39,519 nucleotides of DNA from Methanocella sp. (GTDB taxonomy: Archaea; Thermoproteota; Bathyarchaeia; Bathyarchaeales; Bathycorpusculaceae): contig JBLNCY010000016.1 in NCBI GenBank assembly GCA_050261115.1, positions 1 to 39,519 on the forward strand, read 5' to 3'. A program made the position numbers and the translations under genes. Of this stretch, positions 3,374 to 13,668 are shown one piece after another. Below the pieces are notes generated by a model that was not told the DNA's origin, searched no databases, and saw nothing but the letters and a program-made list of their open reading frames with translations. The stretch's first letter is position 1; each line of letters opens with the position of its first letter.

Positions 3374-4615
3374 ATGCGCAAGCCTTTCCCCTACGAAGAA
3401 CCTGAGTCTTACAAATTATTAAGCGAAATCGACCAAATAGCCCAAACCGGCGCCAGCACGGTTGTCTCCATGGGGTCACAGAAAAAGATACCCTTCTCAT
3501 TAGACGACTTCAATTTCGTTCCTGCACAAATCGCCAAAATCCCACTCAACAGCAACCAACCCATAAACACCGCCGTAACCATTGGGCCACAAGCAAAAAA
3601 GCCCCTCACCGTGTCATCACCTATAATGTTTTCGGCAATGAGTTATGGGGCAGTTACAAAAAACGTTCGATTAATTCTCACACAAGTCGCCTCGAACCTT
3701 AATTTGGCGGTAAACACAGGCGAGGAACTGGTACTTCCCGAAGTAGAACTGGCAACGCCGAATTTGATTGTTCAGTACTCGACAGTTAGAACAGGGCTAA
3801 CAGAGGAGATCCTAAAGAGCGCTTCGGCGGTGGAAATCCGCTTTGGCCAAGGCGCCTATCCTGGCTGGAGAAGCCTTCTACCAGCCGCAAAGATACCCGA
3901 TGACATTCGGCAACTGCGAGGACTTGCCCCAGGCCAAGACGAACATGATTTAGCAAGCCACCCAGACATCCAAAACCCCGCTGAATTAGCGGCAAAAATT
4001 CGCTACCTCAAAGGCATAACCGACGGTGTTCCCGTGGGGGCAAAAATAGGCTGCGGCAACATAGAAGCCGACCTAGAGATTCTAGTGAGTTGCGGTGTAG
4101 ATTTTGTTTCTCTGGACGGGTTTGGCGCAGGAACAGGCGCAACCGAACGGTTTGCAAGGGAAAATCTCGGTATTCCCCTCATAGTAGCGATATCCCGAGC
4201 AAGACGATATCTAGCAAAAACAGGCAACACCGACAAGGTGAGTTTAATCGCCGGTGGCGGACTACGCACCTCTGCAGACTTCGCAAAATGCCTAGCACTA
4301 GGTGCCGACGCAATCTACACAGGCACAGCCACCCTTATCGCGTTGGGATGCCAGCAATACCGGATTTGCCACACGGGCAACTGCCCTCGAGGGGTAACCT
4401 CAAGCAAACCCGAACTCTCAAAGCTGCTCGATGTAGCTGAAGGGGTACGTCGGTTAACCAACTTCGTAAAGGTGTCTACTGCAGAGATGGCAAATATCGC
4501 TAGAATAGTGGGAAAATACGACTTGAGATTAATGGATATTGAGGATCTTGTTGCTCTAAAAAGGGACGCCGCGCAAGCCACGGGGGTAAGGTGGCTTAAC
4601 GGCGAAGTCTTGTAG
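3374..4615 (+). CDS. FMN-binding glutamate synthase family protein (stand-alone synthase domain)
   Basis: AMSYGA, NTGE, EIRFGQGA, DGFGAGTGA, GGLRT..DFAKCLALGAD and the 3Fe-4S motif CQQYRICHTGNCP. Confidence 0.9.
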   Translation: MRKPFPYEEPESYKLLSEIDQIAQTGASTVVSMGSQKKIPFSLDDFNFVPAQIAKIPLNSNQPINTAVTIGPQAKKPLTVSSPIMFSAMSYGAVTKNVRLILTQVASNLNLAVNTGEELVLPEVELATPNLIVQYSTVRTGLTEEILKSASAVEIRFGQGAYPGWRSLLPAAKIPDDIRQLRGLAPGQDEHDLASHPDIQNPAELAAKIRYLKGITDGVPVGAKIGCGNIEADLEILVSCGVDFVSLDGFGAGTGATERFARENLGIPLIVAISRARRYLAKTGNTDKVSLIAGGGLRTSADFAKCLALGADAIYTGTATLIALGCQQYRICHTGNCPRGVTSSKPELSKLLDVAEGVRRLTNFVKVSTAEMANIARIVGKYDLRLMDIEDLVALKRDAAQATGVRWLNGEVL

Positions 4616-5411
4616 CCTCTTTTAGCTCTCTTGCTGTTTTTTCCAGCGCTTTTAGCATGGCATCCTGATTACTGCTGTGACTGACGATTAAGTTAATGAA
4701 TGCACTGCCAACTATAGCTGCATCGGCCCCTGAAGTTATCACTCGCTTGACATGCTCAGGCTTGGAGATGCCAAAGCCCACAGCAAGCGGAACCTTGCCT
4801 GCGGTGACTAGCTGCACCTTTTTTATCAATTCGACAGTTGTATCTGCGACGGCGGCTTGGGCTCCAGTGACTCCAAAGCGTGAGACGAGATAGAGGAAGC
4901 CTTGGGATGCATCGACGATTTTTTGGAGGCGTTCTTCGCTTGTGGACGGTGAAGCAAGGAATATGGCGTTGAGGTTCGCGTCTTTGGCTGCGTTTCTGTA
5001 TTCGTCTGCTTCTTCCACGGGCAAGTCAGGTACAATAATGCCGTTTATGCCTACAGATTTAGCTTTTGTTAGGAACTGTTTGACGCCGTACTTGAAGACA
5101 GGGTTGTAATATGTCATGATGACGATGGGGATGTCATGCTGGCTTCTGATTTCTCGGGCAATCTCTAGCACTTTAGTTGGCGTGGTTCCTGCTTTTAATG
5201 CACGTAGGCTTGCGTTTTGTATCGTGGGGCCATCGGCGATTGGATCAGAGAATGGCAGCCCTAACTCTAATATGTCTACGCCACCTCGGATAAGAGCGTC
5301 TGCGATTGCGGGGGTCTGCTCTGGGGTGGGGTCGCCTGCGGTTATATAGCCGATAAGGCAGCCGCTATCTTGTTGCTTCTGGTTTTGGAAAACCTGCTGT
5401 ATGCTGTTCAT
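4596..5411 (-). CDS. trpA: Tryptophan synthase alpha chain
   Basis: [40 protein letters not shown]. Confidence 0.97.
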
Positions 5412-6604
5412 ATTTTTGCACCTGTGTATTTGGCGATTGTTTCTACGTCTTTGTCGCCTCTGCCTGAGAGAGTGACGACAATCGACTGGGTCTTTTCCAT
5501 CTTTGGCGCAAGTTTAATAGCGTGCGCTAATGCATGTGAGGATTCAAGCGCGGGCAAGATACCCTCTTCTTTGCAAAGCATCAAGAAAGCGTCGACTGCT
5601 TCTTTGTCGTTGGCATACACGTATTCTGCTCGTTTAATGGTTTTTAGGAAGGAGTGTTCAGGGCCGACGCCAGGGTAATCCAGCCCAGCTGAGACGCTGT
5701 GGGTTTCTGCGATTTGGCCATGCCTGTCTTGGAGCACGTAGGTATACATGCCGTGGAAGATGCCCTCGGTGCCTGCGGATAGTGTTGCTGAGTGCTTGTC
5801 GGATTCTATGCCTTCACCTGCCGCTTCAACGCCATAGAGCTTAACTTCTGCGTCATCTTCGAAGGGGTAGAAGGTGCCCATCGCGTTGCTTCCGCCACCT
5901 ACACAGGCTACTAATGCGTCAGGTAAGTTGCCGGTTTTTTGTTTGAATTGCTGCTTGATTTCTCTACCGATGACGCTTTGGAAGTCTCGCACCATCATTG
6001 GATAGGGGTGAGGCCCCATGGTGGAGCCAATTAGGTAGTAAGTGGAATCCAGGTTAGTTACCCAGTCGCGAAAAGCCTCATTAATAGAGTCCTTTAGCGT
6101 TTTAGAGCCTGAATCTACGGGGTGAACCTCGGCGTTTAGCAGTCGCATACGATAGACATTTAGCCGTTGACGCTCGCAGTCCTCGGTACCCATATACACT
6201 ATGCATTTGAGTCCAAGCGCGGCGCATGCTATGGCTGTGGCGACTCCATGTTGACCCGCTCCAGTTTCAGCGATTACTCGGGTCTTGCCCATACGCTTAG
6301 CCAACAGCGCCTGAGCCAGGGTATTGTTGATTTTGTGCGCTCCGCCATGTGCGAGGTCTTCTCGTTTGAGGTAGATTTTTGCGCCACCCAGCTTTCGACT
6401 AAGGTTCTCTGCTAAGTAAAGCGGGGTTGGCCGCCCAACGAATTCGGCAAGGTAATAGTCAAGTTGCTTTTGGAACGAGGGGTCGGCTTTAGCTTCATTG
6501 TAGGCTTTTTCTAATTCTGTGATGGCTTCCATGAGCACCTCGGGTACAAAGCGTCCGCCATATTTGCCGTATTTACCGTCGATGGGGTAACTGCTAATTT
6601 TCAT
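5408..6604 (-). CDS. trpB: Tryptophan synthase beta chain (TrpB1 type)
   Basis: [15 protein letters not shown] (PLP lysine), [36 protein letters not shown]. Confidence 0.98.
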
Positions 6605-7380
6605 ATGGTATTCACTAACTCCTCAACTTTACTTTTGATATCTTTTGCTAACATTATGCTTGAACCAACCAGAAATGCGTCGGCTCCGCAGCCGCGCAGA
6701 AACTGCAGGTGTCCGGGACTCTTTATGCCGCTTTCGCTTATGATGGTGTAGCTTTGTTTGCCCTGTGCCGATAGGATTTGCTGTGTGGTTTTGAGGTCGA
6801 TTTTTAGAGTGTCAAGGTTTCGGTTGTTTATGCCGATGAGGTCAGCGTCTGTTTGCAGCGCCGTTTTGTATTCGGCTTCGGTGTGGGTTTCAAGCAGAAC
6901 CTCCAAACCTCGGTTGTGTGCGTAAGAGATCATTTCTTTAAGTTCTGTTTCGCAGTGGCCTTTGTCGAATAGGGCTTGCATGAGCAAGCATGCGTCGGCG
7001 CCAAGTGCGACGGCTGCATCTATCTGCTCAGTAGAGACGATTATGTCTTTCATTAAAATCGGTAGCTTGACAGAGTTTCTTGCTTGTATCAGTGTCTGGA
7101 GTGAGCCGTTGAAGTGATTGGGTTCGGTCAGGATGGAGAGGCCGATTGCGCCGCCTTGCTGCATCGCCGTCGCTATCTGGGCTGGGTTAATACTGCTGCG
7201 TATGGTTCCTAGTGAAGGTGATGCGGCTTTGATTTCAGTTATGACGGCGTTGGTTTTGCAGTTCTGGATTGCCTGTTTTAGGCTAGTTGGGGTATGGTTT
7301 TTAGGTGGAATGTTTCTGTAGTAGCCGCTTTGGATGGTTTTTTTTGCGCCCAGTGCTAGGGTGTCTAGGAAGTTATGCAT
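6601..7380 (-). CDS. trpC: Indole-3-glycerol phosphate synthase
   Basis: [35 protein letters not shown]. Confidence 0.95.
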
Positions 7381-8431
7381 ATTTTGTTTCTAGCTCCGTT
7401 AGTTTAGTTGGGTTGCTGCCTGAGGCTTCTATGAGCTCTTTTAGTTTAGCGTATGCGGCGCCGCTGTCGATGGATTGCTGTGCTAATTCAAATCCTTCTT
7501 TGAAGTCAGACGCTTTGCCTGTAACCATGATTCCGGCTGCAGCATTGATAAGCACAAGGTCTACTTTAGCGGTGCTTTTTTCTTTTCCAGTTAGAATTTT
7601 GAAGAGTATGTGGGCGCTTTCTTCTACTGATGCGCACAGCAAGTCGCTTATTTGAGCCTGTGTCAAGCCGAAATCAGCCGGCGTGAACTCAGTTTTGCAA
7701 ACGTTTCCATTTTTTAGGTGGGCGATAACGGTTTTTCCAACAGTGGAAATCTCATCTAATCCATCAAGTCCATGTACGACCATGGCTTCTTTGCAGCCCA
7801 ACTTTTGTAGGGCAAAGGCGATTGGGACTACGAGTTTTTGGTCGTATACACCCAGGATTTGTGCGTCGGCGTTGGCAGGGTTAGTAAGTGGACCCAGCAA
7901 GTTGAAGATTGTGCGGATGCCGATTTCTCGTCGAGGTTCAGCTGCGTACTTCATGGCTGGATGGAACGCTGGTGCAAACATGAAACCTACCCCAACTTTT
8001 TCGATTATACCAGCTGTATTTTGCGGCTCTAACGCAAGGTTTAACCCGAGATACTCAAGTACGTCGGCGCTCCCACATTTGCTAGTGACCCCACGATTGC
8101 CATGTTTGGCCACACTGACGCCTGCACCTGCAATCACTAATGCCGCGGCGGTGCTTACGTTGAAGGTTTTAATTTTGTCGCCGCCTGTACCGCAGGTATC
8201 CAGAAGTCGCCCTTGGACTTTGGGGCGAATTTGGCGGCAGTGTCTCTTCATTACTGAGGCAAAGGCGATAAGCTCTTCAACTGCTTCTCCTTTTGCGCGT
8301 AGTGCGGTTAGGAAGGCGGCGGTTTGGTTGCTGGTGGCTTGGCCTGACATGACTTCTGTCATGATGGTGGCTGCCTCTTCATAGGTGAGGTGGTTGCCTT
8401 CGACGAGTTTCTGTATACCTTCGCGTATCAT
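7373..8431 (-). CDS. trpD: Anthranilate phosphoribosyltransferase
   Basis: DTCGTGGD, FNVST, KHGNR..TSKCGSAD, RTIFNLLGPLTNP, DGLDE. Confidence 0.97.
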   Translation of the reverse strand: MIREGIQKLVEGNHLTYEEAATIMTEVMSGQATSNQTAAFLTALRAKGEAVEELIAFASVMKRHCRQIRPKVQGRLLDTCGTGGDKIKTFNVSTAAALVIAGAGVSVAKHGNRGVTSKCGSADVLEYLGLNLALEPQNTAGIIEKVGVGFMFAPAFHPAMKYAAEPRREIGIRTIFNLLGPLTNPANADAQILGVYDQKLVVPIAFALQKLGCKEAMVVHGLDGLDEISTVGKTVIAHLKNGNVCKTEFTPADFGLTQAQISDLLCASVEESAHILFKILTGKEKSTAKVDLVLINAAAGIMVTGKASDFKEGFELAQQSIDSGAAYAKLKELIEASGSNPTKLTELETKYA

Positions 8432-9012
8432 GGTTTTGCCTCCAAGAAGTTTTTGATTATGAGTTTGCCGTCTTCACAGAGGATGCTTTCGGGGTGGAAC
8501 TGGACACCATAGATGGGGTATTTGCGGTGGCGTATACCCATGATTTCGCCGTCGTCTACTGCTTCGGCGGTGATTTCTAGGCAGTCTGGGAGGCTGGTGC
8601 GTTCGCCTGCTAAGCTATGGTAGCGTGTGGCGTTGAATGGGTTTCGGACGCCTGCGAAAATGCCTTGGTGGTTATGTTGGATGGTGCAGGTTTTTCCGTG
8701 CATGAGTTTTTTTGCGTGGGTGACTTTGCCGCCGTAGGTGTGTATGATTCCTTGGTGGCCTAGGCAGACGCCGAGTGTAGGGATGTTTGGGCTGAGTGTT
8801 TGTAGGATGGCTTTGCAGACGCCAAAGAAGTGCTCGTCTTCGGGGTTGCCGGGACCAGGTGAGATGACGATGCGCTCGGGTTTGAGTTTAGCGGCTTCTC
8901 GCAGCGTTATTTGGTCGTTTCGATAAACAACCGTCTCGGCTCTCTGTTCGCCGATGTATTGGACAAGGTTGTAGACGAAGCTGTCATAGTTGTCGATTAC
9001 AAGGACTTTCAT
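8428..9012 (-). CDS. trpG: Anthranilate synthase component II (glutamine amidotransferase)
   Basis: IDNYDSF, SPGPG, GVCLGHQ, RYHSL, QFHPES. Confidence 0.96.
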   Translation of the reverse strand: MKVLVIDNYDSFVYNLVQYIGEQRAETVVYRNDQITLREAAKLKPERIVISPGPGNPEDEHFFGVCKAILQTLSPNIPTLGVCLGHQGIIHTYGGKVTHAKKLMHGKTCTIQHNHQGIFAGVRNPFNATRYHSLAGERTSLPDCLEITAEAVDDGEIMGIRHRKYPIYGVQFHPESILCEDGKLIIKNFLEAKP

Positions 9013-10440
9013 TGCTGTAAGCCTCCTTGAGCGTGCTCGAGTGCCTTCATTAGCGCCCGGGCTTTGTGGTCAGTTTCCATCCACTCTTTCTCAGGTTCGG
9101 AATCAGCGACGATGCCTGCCCCCACCTGAATGTAGGCGCAGTTGCCCTGGGCAAAGAGCGTGCGGATGGTTATGGCAAAGTCAGCATTGCCGTTGCAGCT
9201 AAAGTAGCCGACTGCACCAGCATACGGACCACGATGGCTAGCTTCAAGTTCCTCGATGATTTCCATGGCTCGAACTTTGGGTGCTCCTGAAACAGTGCCT
9301 GCTGGAAACATGGCTTTCAATGCATCAAAACTTGTTAAGCCGTTTTTTAGGTCGCCGACCACTTGTGAAACTATATGCTGCACATGGCTGAACTGGTGAA
9401 CCTGCATAAACTCAGGCACAGTTACAGAGCCGGGTTTGCTGATTTTTCCCACGTCATTTCTTGCAAGGTCAACCAGCATAACGTGCTCGGCGCGCTCTTT
9501 TGGATCACGTAAAAGCTCCTTGCATAGTTTCTGATTTTCCTGTTTGTTGGCTGAGATGGGGGTGGTGCCTGCGATGGGAAAAGTCATAACCTTGTTGTTG
9601 TCGATGCGGAATAGCATTTCGGGGCTTGCACCCACGATTTGGCGGTTACCCGATTTGTAGTAGAACATGTAGGGTGAGGGGTTGATTTGACGTAGGCTCT
9701 TGTAGAAGGTAAGCAGGCTTCCGCTGTATTGGACTTGGAAGCGTTTGGAGAGGACAACTTGAAAGATGTCTCCCGAGGTGATGTACTGTTTAGCCTTTAC
9801 AACCGCCCGCTTGAAGTCTTCTTTTGGTGTGTCCACGGTGGGTTGGGTATATGTGAAGGGTTCTTCTTTTGCGTCGGGTTGTTTTAGGAGTGCTTTGATT
9901 TCTTTTAGGCGATTTTCTTCTCGATAATAGTAGTAGGCTTGGTGTTGTGTGTGATCAAATACGATGCCGTCTTCGAATATGCCCATTTCTATGTCAGGAA
10001 AATTGAGAGGGTCGGGTTTTTGGTTGGGAAGTTTTTCTATGTATCTTATGGCGTCGTAGCTTACGTATCCTAGTGCTCCTCCGACGAAGCCGAAGTCTAC
10101 TATGTTGTTGGTGTAGGATTCTAAGAGTTGTTTTATTTGTTTGAGGGGGTCTGTGGTTTGTTGGGTTGTTGTTTGGTGGGTGGTGTTGTCGGTTATGGTT
10201 AGGGCGCCGTTTTTGGCGGTTAGGGTTGTTTTTGGGTTGAATCCTATGAAGGAGTATCTTGCGAGTTTTTGTGGTCCTTCGATGGATTCGAGAAGGTAGG
10301 CGGTTGGGTAGGTTTGGTGGAGTTTTGTGAATATTTCTATGGGTTGGTTGGTGTAGGTGAATTTAAGGTAGTTGAGTGGGTTTATGATTGGTTTTTTGGT
10401 TTGTTTTTGTGGTGGCGTTTTGCCAAAGGTGATTCCCCAT
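9009..10440 (-). CDS. trpE: Anthranilate synthase component I; full-length product needs a +1 frame change near 10427 or a non-canonical start
   Basis: The listed 325-aa ORF is only the C-terminal part. The same frame is open up to TGA at 10446-10448 and encodes [22 protein letters not shown] and [16 protein letters not shown], but has no ATG/GTG/TTG before 9986. ATG 10440 is in a different frame. Confidence 0.92.
10363..10440 (-). promoter_or_regulatory. trp leader ORF (25 aa, [25 protein letters not shown]) with candidate +1 shift site CTT-TGG-C at 10428-10422
   Basis: SD-like GGAGTATGATC lies just before ATG 10440 (a second in-frame ATG is at 10449). Single Trp at codon 6, TAA at 10365-10363, overlapping trpE out of frame. 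Confidence 0.6.
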
Positions 10441-10483
10441 TTTGATCATACTCCGTGTGTGTTCACATCAATACAATAATGTG

Positions 10484-10491
10484 CTATTTAA
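10484..10491 (-). promoter_or_regulatory. Candidate TATA box of the trp operon
   Basis: TTAAATAG on the minus strand about 45 nt upstream of ATG 10440, overlapping the stop codon of the upstream gene. Confidence 0.45.
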
Positions 10492-11354
10492 GGCTTGTTT
10501 GTACACTTCTGTACGTTAGGCTTGTTTTTCACTACCTCCCTAACCTTAAAACCAGCATAAACCCCAACAGCAACCAGCACAACCGAAAACAACCCAACCG
10601 TAAAAGTAAACTGAGCCTCGCTTCTATCTGTCCCTTGATCATCTGTCACAGTTGCATTATTCGGAAAACCCCTGCTCTCCCAGTACCCACGATAATCCGG
10701 ATCATTCGATACCTTGATTTCGGTAATCCACTCAACCCACTTATACCCATACTGGCTCTTAGCAACCAAAAAGAACGGCCAACCCAATTCAGGCGTCAAA
10801 GTAACATTGTTCATCTTGTATGCAATCATGATGTTATTTTCCTCAATATACTCAAGCGGCAAGGAGGAAGAGTAACCGTCAGAGGCATAGAAAATCACCG
10901 TATTCGCATCCGAACTAACCCCGCCAGCATACTCCAGCAAATTAGTTATAGCAACACCTTCCCAGAGCATAGTTACACTCCAACCCTCAACACAGGGCAA
11001 TGTAGCTACTTGCAAAACAGAATCAAACCCGTCCACGACTTCACTGTAGTTAAGCGATGTGGGCTTGTTTACTAGACCTGTGATGGGCAGTGTGTAGTTT
11101 TCTGGGTCGATGAATTGCGTTCCCTTGATTGCGGCATTCGGGTGCTGCTTTAGGTACTTTAGGTATTGGTTGATGGGTGTCAGGGTTTGGTTTTCATATT
11201 CTGCAATTTCGCTTGGCTGAAGCGTCGGCGATGGTGTAGGCTGTGGCGTAGAAATAGCGGCCAGAACCGTGAATGGAGCCATAGATAGGGCTATTGTAGA
11301 TATCAAAAGGGCGGTAATTAACACATTTACTTTGTGTTGTTTTAGAATTTGCAT
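10488..11354 (-). CDS. Molybdopterin-dependent oxidoreductase (sulfite oxidase/MsrP-like), exported and membrane-anchored
   Basis: LPCVEGWS..WEGV, DGYSSSLPL, YGYKWVEWI, GYWESRG. N-terminal signal peptide, Pro/Thr linker and C-terminal TM helix. Confidence 0.88.
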   Translation of the reverse strand: MQILKQHKVNVLITALLISTIALSMAPFTVLAAISTPQPTPSPTLQPSEIAEYENQTLTPINQYLKYLKQHPNAAIKGTQFIDPENYTLPITGLVNKPTSLNYSEVVDGFDSVLQVATLPCVEGWSVTMLWEGVAITNLLEYAGGVSSDANTVIFYASDGYSSSLPLEYIEENNIMIAYKMNNVTLTPELGWPFFLVAKSQYGYKWVEWITEIKVSNDPDYRGYWESRGFPNNATVTDDQGTDRSEAQFTFTVGLFSVVLVAVGVYAGFKVREVVKNKPNVQKCTNKP

Positions 11355-12467: not shown

Positions 12468-13439
12468 TTAAAATGTTGATATGAATTCTCCATAAGTAGG
12501 CCAAGGTACTAGAACGGGGTAAATTTTCATGTCTATCTTTGAGATTCCCTTGATTTTGGTGACTTGGCTCTGGGTTTCGAGTAACTGATTAAGGCTCTTT
12601 AGCATAATAAAAGCAAACAAATCGATGTCGCCGCTAGTTTTGATCATTAGGACGCTGTCTTCTATCTTGAATAGTTCTTTAATCACTTCATTGGGATCCG
12701 CTTCTGACCCAAGTGTGATGGGGAAAACGAGCACCGCATGATACCCTAACTTGGGCAGGTTTAGCTGGATGACGGGCTTTATTATGCCTTTTTCGGTGAG
12801 TTTCTTGTATCTTCTCGCTACAGTGTTAATTGAGGTCCCGATTGTCTGCGCGATTTTGCTAAACGGTTGCATGCTGTCTTTTAGTAGCTGCTCGATTATT
12901 TGCTGGTCAATTTCTTCTATTTCATAATCGGCTTTGTATGGTTCTTCTGTTTGTAAGTCTATATCGCCTTCGCGGGGAGCATCCTCTATAATGTGGAGTC
13001 GTTCAGGCATGTTTTTAACGTCAGTCCAAACTTCCACCTTTACGTCGGTAACGTACTTATGTCGTTTAATACATTCTTTGAACTTGCCCGCCTCACGTAT
13101 ATCATTCAAACCGACGAGAAGACTAATGCAATTTTTAGGGGCCAAAGCAATCAACGATGTTTGATAAGGCAATTTCTTTATGAACTCAAGTACTTGCTCT
13201 GCTCCAGTTTGGTCGATGTTTACCACGACGCTGCTGATTGTTTTGTGTCCTATTGCTTTGTGATTGACTTGCACTGTGGAGCCTAGGATTATCTTGGCGT
13301 TTTCTAGTTCGGTAAAGCGTTCACTTATTGCTGCGGTGGATAGGTTGCATTCCGAGGCGATGTCGACGAAACTTTTACGCGCGTTAACCAGTAGGTTTTT
13401 GATAATTTTTGCGTCTGTTTCGTCTATTGTTCGATTTAT
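12468..13439 (-). CDS. Tandem (double-domain) Lrp/AsnC transcriptional regulator, probable ATA start
   Basis: The frame extends 55 codons beyond the listed ORF and encodes a first HTH (IDETDAKIIKNLLVNARKSFVDIASECNLSTAAISERF). The second HTH is IEEIDQQIIEQLLKDSMQPFSKIAQTIGTSINTVARRY. GGGTGA SD lies 6 nt before ATA 13439. Confidence 0.88.
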   Translation of the reverse strand: MNRTIDETDAKIIKNLLVNARKSFVDIASECNLSTAAISERFTELENAKIILGSTVQVNHKAIGHKTISSVVVNIDQTGAEQVLEFIKKLPYQTSLIALAPKNCISLLVGLNDIREAGKFKECIKRHKYVTDVKVEVWTDVKNMPERLHIIEDAPREGDIDLQTEEPYKADYEIEEIDQQIIEQLLKDSMQPFSKIAQTIGTSINTVARRYKKLTEKGIIKPVIQLNLPKLGYHAVLVFPITLGSEADPNEVIKELFKIEDSVLMIKTSGDIDLFAFIMLKSLNQLLETQSQVTKIKGISKIDMKIYPVLVPWPTYGEFISTF

Positions 13440-13668
13440 GGGTACTCACCCGGATGTATAACAGTAGAACGTGGAGTTGACTTTTAAATCCTTGCCCCAT
13501 GATGCATTATGGGTGGATTACTTTTTATTATTTTGTGCTGAGCTTAACGCTTGATGGCATTTTGTTGATAATAAAATAAGCAATATTTGCTTTGTGATTT
13601 AATTTTTTGCATTTTTTTCTGTGTTAATGGTAAATCTTATAAAGTGAACGAAACAATAGAGCAGCCAT

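Follow-up and report, generated by a model that had tools for sequence, protein, structure and literature searches.

A conserved leader cassette with a predicted +1 frameshift at a tryptophan codon precedes trpE in Bathyarchaeia and related archaea

Analysis of a 39,519-nucleotide (nt) stretch of DNA (here called the window; GenBank assembly GCA_050261115.1, contig JBLNCY010000016.1, positions 1 to 39,519 of the forward strand) revealed a tryptophan operon, trpE-G-D-C-B-A (4596-10445), whose first gene, trpE, has no canonical start codon ahead of much of its conserved enzyme sequence. The initial annotation had proposed that trpE, in an archaeal host, is reached by a tryptophan-dependent +1 ribosomal frameshift from a short leader open reading frame (ORF). 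The host is indeed archaeal and belongs to the Bathyarchaeia. Throughout the text, G000 denotes the source genome (2.15 Mb), and all other codes (G### for genomes, L### for loci, f1, f21 and f25 for families) are arbitrary. The features at the beginning of the operon are as follows.

10485..10492, minus strand: TATA-like box CTTAAATA, overlapping the stop of the upstream molybdopterin-oxidoreductase gene (10488-11354)
10451..10454, minus strand: Shine-Dalgarno (SD) sequence GGAG, 10 nt before the ATG at 10440
10363..10440, minus strand: leader ORF in frame 0, 25 sense codons and a stop, with a single Trp codon (codon 6)
10433..10438, minus strand: candidate stimulatory element GGGGAA, purine/G-rich and SD-like, 4-6 nt upstream of the slip codon
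10422..10428, minus strand: predicted slip heptamer CTT-TGG-C, comprising the P-site Leu codon, the A-site Trp codon and the next base
9009..10424, minus strand: trpE, anthranilate synthase component I as predicted after the shift (PF04715, 8.3e-38; PF00425, 1.9e-99)

The trpE frame is open from 10445 to a stop at 9011-9009 and comprises 478 codons, of which the first 153 contain no canonical start; the first ATG, GTG or TTG is codon 154, at 9986. Pfam domains were assigned to residues 34-171 (Anth_synt_I_N) and 208-461 (Chorismate_bind), with about 120 codons of conserved enzyme upstream of this first canonical start. Frame 0 reads ATG (10449) ATC AAA ATG (10440) GGG AAT CAC CTT (10428-10426) TGG (10425-10423) CAA and ends at a TAA (10365-10363). 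Skipping one base at CTT-TGG-C leads to TTT (10427)-GGC (10424), which is the trpE frame, and the predicted product, MGNHL followed by GKTPP..., has 476 amino acids including the five leader residues. The description in the initial annotation held in these respects: the startless frame with its first canonical start at 9986, the SD-backed ATG at 10440 with a 25-codon ORF, the one-base slip leading to a protein of about 476 amino acids, the sole leader Trp codon lying at the slip site, and the G run 6 nt upstream of the slip codon could all be confirmed in the sequence. An alternative leader-frame ATG at 10449 lies only 1 nt beyond the SD sequence. The spacing of 10 nt between SD sequence and start also occurs in the DnaG gene and a SufS-like gene of G000, which carry the SD-like sequences AGGAG and GAGG, respectively.

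To place the locus among its relatives, trpE 5' regions were collected in genome surveys covering the phylum of the host lineage. At the level of genus and order, TrpE homologues were found in 27 of 40 relatives (55-83% identity) and yielded 30 loci, two genomes being represented twice. A named-record set contributed 29 loci, 28 of them with an anchor, and contained one locus without its 5' end and one bacterial locus, leaving 26 usable archaeal loci; its scan used peptide words containing the motif and is biased towards the cassette. TrpE was matched in 216 of 401 genomes, made up of an even draw of 400 from the phylum together with G000, and 80 trpE 5' regions spanning families were picked among the 150 matches listed. 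Ten more genomes, from the families with the weakest TrpE matches, gave 11 loci. The pool (L001-L139) comprised 138 loci with an anchor and 131 non-duplicate loci, of which 129 were archaeal and had a 5' end.

The cassette, a leader start followed by NTT-TGG with trpE one base forward, was present in 119 of these 129 regions, in Bathyarchaeia as well as in records labelled Thaumarchaeota/Nitrososphaerales. Within the genus and order, 29 of 30 loci read RTG-RGG-NAT-NNN-NTT-TGG followed by trpE in the +1 frame, most of them without a canonical start in that frame. All 26 usable archaeal loci of the named-record set carry it, while its bacterial locus has no such motif, and six of these cassettes, labelled Thaumarchaeota, Nitrososphaerales or Nitrosopumilales, read ATG GGC GAT CGT TTT TGG C. 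The phylum draw contained the cassette in 71 of the 80 loci chosen among the matches listed. In the weak-match set it was found in 1 of 11 loci (L146, which belongs to the same order); the remaining loci start in frame in the ordinary way or show no motif in the open frame, and the match of L150 is only C-terminal.

Among the 119 cassette loci, the leader starts with ATG in 111, GTG in 4 and TTG in 4, and TGG occupies the sixth codon in 105. As the P-site codon, the genus uses CTT, and other families use GTT or ATT; the base following TGG is mostly C (C 82, A 21, T 9, G 7). The frame-0 stop comes 0 to 45 codons after TGG, behind a tail that is not conserved, and the trpE frame is open from TGG onward in every case. 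Both the frame-0 tail and the trpE-frame linker diverge in length and sequence between relatives. The alignment thus gave the outcome that the initial annotation had named as the test of its proposal, i.e., an ATG...NTT-TGG kept in the +1 phase next to a diverging linker. A plain in-frame start in relatives, which it had named as a point against the proposal, occurs in a minority of 10 of 129 loci, and two of these are in-frame versions of the cassette.

The A-site codon is UGG in 119 of 119 cassettes in a search that demanded TGG, and cassettes with any other codon would fall among the ten cassette-free loci. When TT was not required, 120 loci showed a start and then a TGG within 12 codons in the frame from which a +1 step leads to trpE, and NTT preceded 119 of the 124 frame-0 TGGs concerned (CTT 68, GTT 25, ATT 15, TTT 11). 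In the other alternative frame, which served as a control, 17 loci contained such a TGG, and NTT stood before 1 of 21. The encoded P-site residue varies (L, V, I, F), yet the codon is always NTT. Together, these comparisons lend strong support to a predicted +1 frameshift at NTT-TGG before trpE.

The position of the putative shift is narrowed further by stop codons. Seven loci from five genera have a trpE-frame stop directly before TTT, so that no in-frame start is possible upstream, and all seven retain (TTA/CTA) GTT TGG with GTT as the P-site codon. Three loci have their frame-0 stop immediately behind TGG. Provided that all cassettes work by a single mechanism, these two kinds of stop confine the shift to NTT-TGG. 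Natural in-frame versions of the cassette were found in two genomes. When G006 is aligned with six relatives from its genus, its slip-site T run has a gap of one base (CCTT-GAC versus CATTTGGC); the same ATG, SD sequence and TATA box lie upstream, and the downstream residues N-Q-x-T-K-Q-T... equal the predicted shifted product of G203. In G064, the distance from the homologous ATG to TCCGATAAACC is 24 nt, compared to 28 nt in G126. All ten cassette-free loci have in-frame starts, and none of them contains a leader that is out of register with trpE or separated from it by a stop. The cassette, its phase, the place of the predicted shift and the identity of the leader start codon are in this way given by comparison.

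A second conserved element lies upstream of the slip codon. Counted from the first base of that codon, position -8 is G and position -9 a purine in 119 of 119 loci; position -7 is G in 79, T in 32 and C in 8, and purines occupy positions -6 and -5 in 107 and 117 loci, respectively. The residues encoded by the -9 to -5 element vary (G/R, N/D/G/Y/E), which points to a constraint on the RNA. The 16S 3' end of G000 reads ..GGATCACCTCCT and contains the anti-SD sequence CCUCC, indicating that the element is SD-like; it probably stimulates the shift, with a spacing that differs from that in the bacterial release factor 2 (RF2) gene prfB. The codon preceding the slip codon (10429-10431; E-site) is mostly of the form Y-R-Y, with C/T in 107, G/A in 106 and C/T in 106 of 119 loci. 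On the 3' side of the slip site, the linker is A/C-rich and divergent, and a scan of 10250-10600 against Rfam gave no family at E <= 1. The tRNAs that would decode the P-site codons are present in G000 (Leu-GAG, Val-GAC, Ile-GAT and Phe-GAA) and all share G34-A35; tRNA-Trp was not listed by aragorn, which was run without intron search.

Archaeal promoter geometry and the TATA consensus are well established, and by that consensus the box CTTAAATA would be the promoter of the trp operon. Upstream of the leader start, a TTAAATA-type box begins at a distance of 46-55 nt in all 17 family-f1 loci and of 39-58 nt in all 49 genus/order and named-record loci; alignment A1 shows TTAAATA without variation. 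For 16 of the 18 loci of family f21, the distance from the beginning of a TTTAAATA-type box to the leader ATG is 29-31 nt. Given archaeal promoter geometry, this spacing suggests that the f21 transcript starts at the leader ATG, i.e., that the trpE mRNA of this family would be leaderless. No paper turned up in a literature search on leaderless transcripts and transcription start sites of Nitrosopumilus. In the stretch from the TATA box to the SD sequence (10455-10484), many trpE promoters contain GTAT(G/A)C..TGAAC or repeated TGTAYA-like half-palindromes (alignment A1; loci L096-L098, L100 and L101; also the cassette-free family f25), which may be a transcription-factor operator and, as such, a second layer of control.

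We also searched G000 for a start codon followed, after up to 10 codons, by NTT-TGG, with a +1 frame of at least 150 codons that has no canonical start upstream or within 30 codons downstream. In the 2.15-Mb genome, only the trpE site has these properties, and no second such device was found; the layout at trpE exceeds a chance occurrence. Thirteen other matches to a tighter pattern have +1 frames of at most 55 codons. In five f21 genomes, five of the seven pattern matches lie at trpE, and the other two are located inside ORFs and have no TATA box.

We consider it likely that this arrangement is a conserved +1 programmed ribosomal frameshift that lets the trp operon sense tryptophan during translation. 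Ribosomes would initiate at the SD-led ATG at 10440 or, in thaumarchaeal-type relatives, at a leaderless ATG. After four more codons (GGG AAT CAC CTT), Leu-tRNA(GAG) on CUU in the P site would await Trp-tRNA at UGG. With plentiful Trp-tRNA, UGG would be read and translation would terminate at the frame-0 stop, giving a short, unconserved peptide and no TrpE. With scarce Trp-tRNA, the A site would stay empty and the P-site tRNA would re-pair one base forward, from NUU to UUU, where anticodon positions 34-35 (G-A) would pair alike with UU in both frames. Gly-tRNA would then read GGC (GGN in relatives), and translation would continue through trpE. The purine/G-rich SD-like element 4-6 nt upstream would probably promote the shift. 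What suggests the tryptophan-sensing step is the UGG in the A site of all 119 cassettes together with the identity of the gene as trpE. In some lineages the leader is as short as four codons (MCLW), which makes a nascent-peptide sensor unlikely.

The remaining genes of the operon would probably follow trpE by translational coupling, since the six genes overlap by 4-8 nt; all five junctions overlap, by either 4 or 8 nt.

8428..9012, minus strand: trpG, glutamine amidotransferase (PF00117, 8.4e-57), whose ATG overlaps the trpE stop by 4 nt
7373..8431, minus strand: trpD, anthranilate phosphoribosyltransferase (PF00591, 7.5e-94), 4-nt overlap with trpG
6601..7380, minus strand: trpC, indole-3-glycerol-phosphate synthase (PF00218, 1.9e-70), 8-nt overlap with trpD
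5408..6604, minus strand: putative trpB, tryptophan synthase beta, a pyridoxal phosphate enzyme (PF00291, 6e-46), 4-nt overlap with trpC
4596..5411, minus strand: trpA, tryptophan synthase alpha (PF00290, 4.8e-94), 4-nt overlap with trpB

The name trpB is suggested by the position of the gene in the operon. No trpF was seen within the trp operon (4596-10445).

Taken further, the cassette may represent an ancient translational attenuator across much of the phylum, from Bathyarchaeia to the records labelled Thaumarchaeota/Nitrososphaerales, in which the charging of tRNA-Trp, read at a single UGG, would choose the frame and thereby switch on the whole of trpEGDCBA. We lean towards this broader reading, under which the cassette would be the first case of +1 programmed frameshifting in a cellular gene of archaea and the first natural feedback control of an amino-acid pathway by hungry-codon frameshifting.

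Several observations weigh against a tryptophan-sensing frameshift. All support for a shift at trpE is comparative, and the 119 cassette loci are related, partly hand-chosen and partly found by the motif, so that their counts are not independent samples. In 74 of the 119, some canonical trpE-frame start lies upstream of the conserved domain, which makes independent initiation possible in many lineages. A weak codon-position test on the 10 linker codons after the slip site, based on 60 non-independent pairs of at least 80% identity, gave 102, 49 and 103 differences at trpE-frame positions 1, 2 and 3; the least change falls on trpE-frame position 2, which is frame-0 position 3, unlike what a constraint on the leader frame would leave. 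A stimulatory RNA structure was not apparent either, as folding of 10340-10465 gave no structure beyond shuffled sequences (z = -0.52). To these points come three that bear on the start codon itself: the genus uses non-canonical starts elsewhere (ACG in DnaG, ATA in the SufS-like gene), an ATH codon stands two codons before TTT in most Bathyarchaeia (ATC 10433-10431 here), and in family f21 the leader ATG is followed 4 nt later by a GTG that is in frame with trpE. They fit an explanation without any frameshift, in which TrpE starts at ATC 10433-10431, at ATC/ATA 10388-10383 or at the f21 GTG, and the leader is a Trp-containing upstream ORF that modulates this start; the 74 loci with a canonical in-frame start would suit it as well. 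We nevertheless regard this explanation as improbable. The SD sequence lies 10 nt from the frame-0 ATG and 17 nt from the ATC, and trpE does not fall into the class of genes with a non-canonical start, as the codon 10 nt after its SD sequence is a canonical ATG in the other frame. L076 and L077 have neither ATH nor a canonical start at the place of this ATC, and an upstream in-frame start such as ATH is impossible in the seven loci with a stop before TTT, where NTT-TGG is still kept. Initiation at ATC/ATA 10388/10385, which the initial annotation had listed as an alternative, was not supported, since these Ile codons are unconserved: several close relatives have none in the stretch from the slip site to the conserved NPLNY block. 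Furthermore, the trpE frame is open from TGG in all cassette loci with no leader out of register, both in-frame variants (G006, G064) use the leader ATG, and the leaderless geometry of f21 favors a 5'-terminal AUG.

The other explanations concern the integrity of the sequence and the purpose of the shift. Startless genes often arise as artefacts in metagenome-assembled genomes, and the layout might reflect an assembly error or a decaying trpE pseudogene. However, 17 public runs from 14 studies contain an 801-base stretch of the locus, and in the four that were compared (two DNA libraries and two RNA libraries, originating in four studies) all four contig sets agree with the genome and show no indel in 9900-10700. 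The only substitutions, at 10145, 10205, 10615 and 10635, lie outside the cassette, with none in 10363-10454, and the indel between 10360 and 10450 that the initial annotation had considered was present in neither the DNA nor the RNA-library contigs, which are independent of the assembly. One RNA-library contig ends at 10614, which is uninformative; the runs are represented by contigs, in which rare variants, transcript ends and expression levels are not visible. An assembly artefact is excluded as the cause of the break in the trpE frame, and with the layout recurring in 119 loci and a TrpE frame that is intact over 478 codons and has strong Pfam scores, the probability left for error or decay is negligible. 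A correction of the frame in the RNA, through transcriptional slippage or editing, is very improbable as well: nothing specific speaks for it, the T run comprises just three bases, the slip site has no conserved long homopolymer, and both RNA-library contig sets match the genome without an indel, although a minor edited form is possible since contigs lose rare variants. A frameshift that is real but constitutive, setting a fixed low yield of TrpE or persisting as a tolerated historical accident without a tryptophan response, would agree with the comparative evidence for the shift, which is silent on regulation, and the SD-like element could drive shifting alone, as described for bacterial cassettes in the available text of a review on archaeal recoding (PMC8211752). 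Yet any codon starting with U would allow the slip, and the invariant UGG, in a search that demanded TGG, has no explanation without a link to tryptophan; moreover, the gene behind all 119 cassettes is always that of the first Trp-synthesis enzyme, and the cassette is unique to trpE in G000 and in the five f21 genomes. We therefore judge a constitutive shift unlikely and prefer the tryptophan-sensing frameshift.

Genes without a canonical start were also screened for in G000, where 30 of 1095 long ORFs have their first canonical start at least 50 codons in, and about 8 of these 30 look like real genes without a canonical start. DnaG (C28:22582-23838, L183/L187; relatives L188-L211) has ACG in place of ATG in 14 of 15 genus loci including G000, with ATG retained in G006 of the same genus and in several other families of the order. 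The starts compare as ACG GGA ACA TCC CAA versus ATG GGT TCA TCA CAG, with AGGAG 10 nt upstream in G000, and ACG is probably a conserved start codon. The SufS-like cysteine desulfurase (C31:79738-80976, L184/L212; relatives L213-L231) has ATA in 7 of 15 genus loci including G000 and GTG in 7, one locus being frameshifted there (ACA ATA AAC versus ACA GTG AAC); this ATA, 10 nt after GAGG and just past the stop of the upstream gene, is probably the start. For DnaG, ATT-TAC/CTT-TAC was tried as a slip site and rejected, since the conserved ACG in place of ATG explains the gene.

Further startless-looking genes of G000 lie in contigs C31 (7339-8823), C65 (14683-16956), C53, C34 and C64. They include a PurF-like amidotransferase (AAC ACG GGC TGC, with ACG two codons before the catalytic Cys), a family-B DNA polymerase (ATT TTT GAC GTT TAT after GAGG), a GNAT acetyltransferase, a 1451-codon ORF, and an acyltransferase that has an ATG in the +1 frame of its main ORF and would need a -1 shift or an indel. 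An ATT-TGG in the PurF-like gene was rejected as a further slip site because it lies after the catalytic Cys. Within the window, an AsnC-type protein with two helix-turn-helix (HTH) domains (12471-13445, minus strand) has its first HTH (VPINRTIDETDAKIIKNLL...) upstream of its first canonical start, GTG 13274; candidate starts are ATA 13439-13437 and 13427-13425. Most of the AsnC-type paralogues compared have ATG, GTG or TTG near the N terminus, and several others also have none there. At one AsnC-family paralogue (L155, G013:C5, the same place as L171), a five-codon mini-ORF, ATG GAT CAC GCA ATT TAG, ends at the point from which a startless main ORF runs on in the +1 frame (TTT AGT GAA ...). 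This NUU-UAG layout is reminiscent of prfB, and as a single locus it could be due to chance.

A literature search found no description of a frameshift in trpE or anthranilate synthase. The available text of the 2021 archaeal recoding review contains no occurrence of tryptophan, anthranilate or trp (PMC8211752), and anthranilate, trpE and tryptophan do not occur in the available part of the main text of the GeneTack survey (PMC3711429). The available text of a 2016 recoding review calls the natural use of hungry-codon frameshifting unclear (PMC5009743), a question that the trpE cassette would answer if the proposed sensing is real. Beside transcription attenuation and RNA control of the T-box/TRAP type, it would then be a third route by which amino-acid supply is coupled to operon expression, with a sensor built from only some 20 nt of mRNA that does without a protein or RNA structure of its own, and Archaea would have their first known case of cellular +1 recoding. 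If cultured ammonia oxidizers share the cassette, the switch would be directly testable. There is also a practical consequence: gene callers must truncate such trpE genes (here by 153 codons) or misplace their start, and tryptophan pathway calls in Bathyarchaeia and relatives may be distorted by this miscalling.

One of the closest known counterparts is bacterial prfB, in which an autoregulatory +1 frameshift occurs at CUU-UGA-C as the P-site tRNA re-pairs from CUU to UUU, with a G-rich SD-like element 3 nt upstream. The trpE cassette resembles it in the predicted P-site step from CUU to UUU, the preservation of NTT-T (119 of 124, versus 1 of 21 in the control) providing the sequence that re-pairing requires, in the G-rich SD-like element a few nt upstream, in the location of the shift early in the ORF, and in the C that follows in 82 of 119 loci. 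In prfB, the A site holds a UGA stop that is recognized by RF2, the product of the gene itself; at trpE it holds the sense codon UGG, decoded by a tRNA. Further differences from prfB are that trpE encodes a biosynthetic enzyme in an archaeal host, that the P-site codon may also be GUU, AUU or UUU, and that in the window the G run ends 6 nt, not 3 nt, before the slip codon.

A nearly identical heptamer, CUU-AGG-C, directs the +1 shift of the yeast element Ty1, which is of the hungry-codon type and needs no downstream structure, according to the available text of the 2016 review (PMC5009743). In both cases, a P-site Leu-tRNA would slip while a sense codon waits for a scarce tRNA. The tRNA concerned is constitutively rare for Ty1, and the shift sets the Gag:Pol ratio, whereas the codon at trpE specifies the very amino acid made by the gated operon, so that the shift would be a feedback sensor. 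Frameshifting at UGG is also known from tryptophan-starved human cells, as stated in the available texts (PMC8942854, PMC13751296). There it is a stress error that yields aberrant peptides, unlike the trpE cassette, which would be a selected and positioned device with a defined slippery codon.

The proposed logic of the cassette resembles that of leader-peptide (trpL) transcription attenuation in bacterial trp operons. A short leader ORF with a Trp codon (25 codons, one UGG) lies directly before trpE, and ribosome speed at UGG would report the level of charged tRNA-Trp and decide on operon expression. In contrast to trpL, no terminator or antiterminator structure was detected by folding or in Rfam, there is a single Trp codon, and the leader overlaps trpE and would be fused to it by the change of frame, giving a translational instead of a transcriptional read-out. 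Among archaea, the available text of the 2021 review gives the -1 programmed frameshift on A-AAA-AAT in fucA1 of Saccharolobus solfataricus as the only cellular case, and mentions a possible +1 event in a haloarchaeal virus (PMC8211752). The trpE cassette would likewise be a programmed frameshift in an archaeal cellular gene; fucA1 differs from it in shifting by -1, in being limited to a single species and in having no known regulatory logic. In comparison with these systems, the slip chemistry proposed for trpE is familiar. What is unfamiliar is the proposed role, sensing an amino acid for a biosynthetic operon, in Archaea and throughout much of a phylum.

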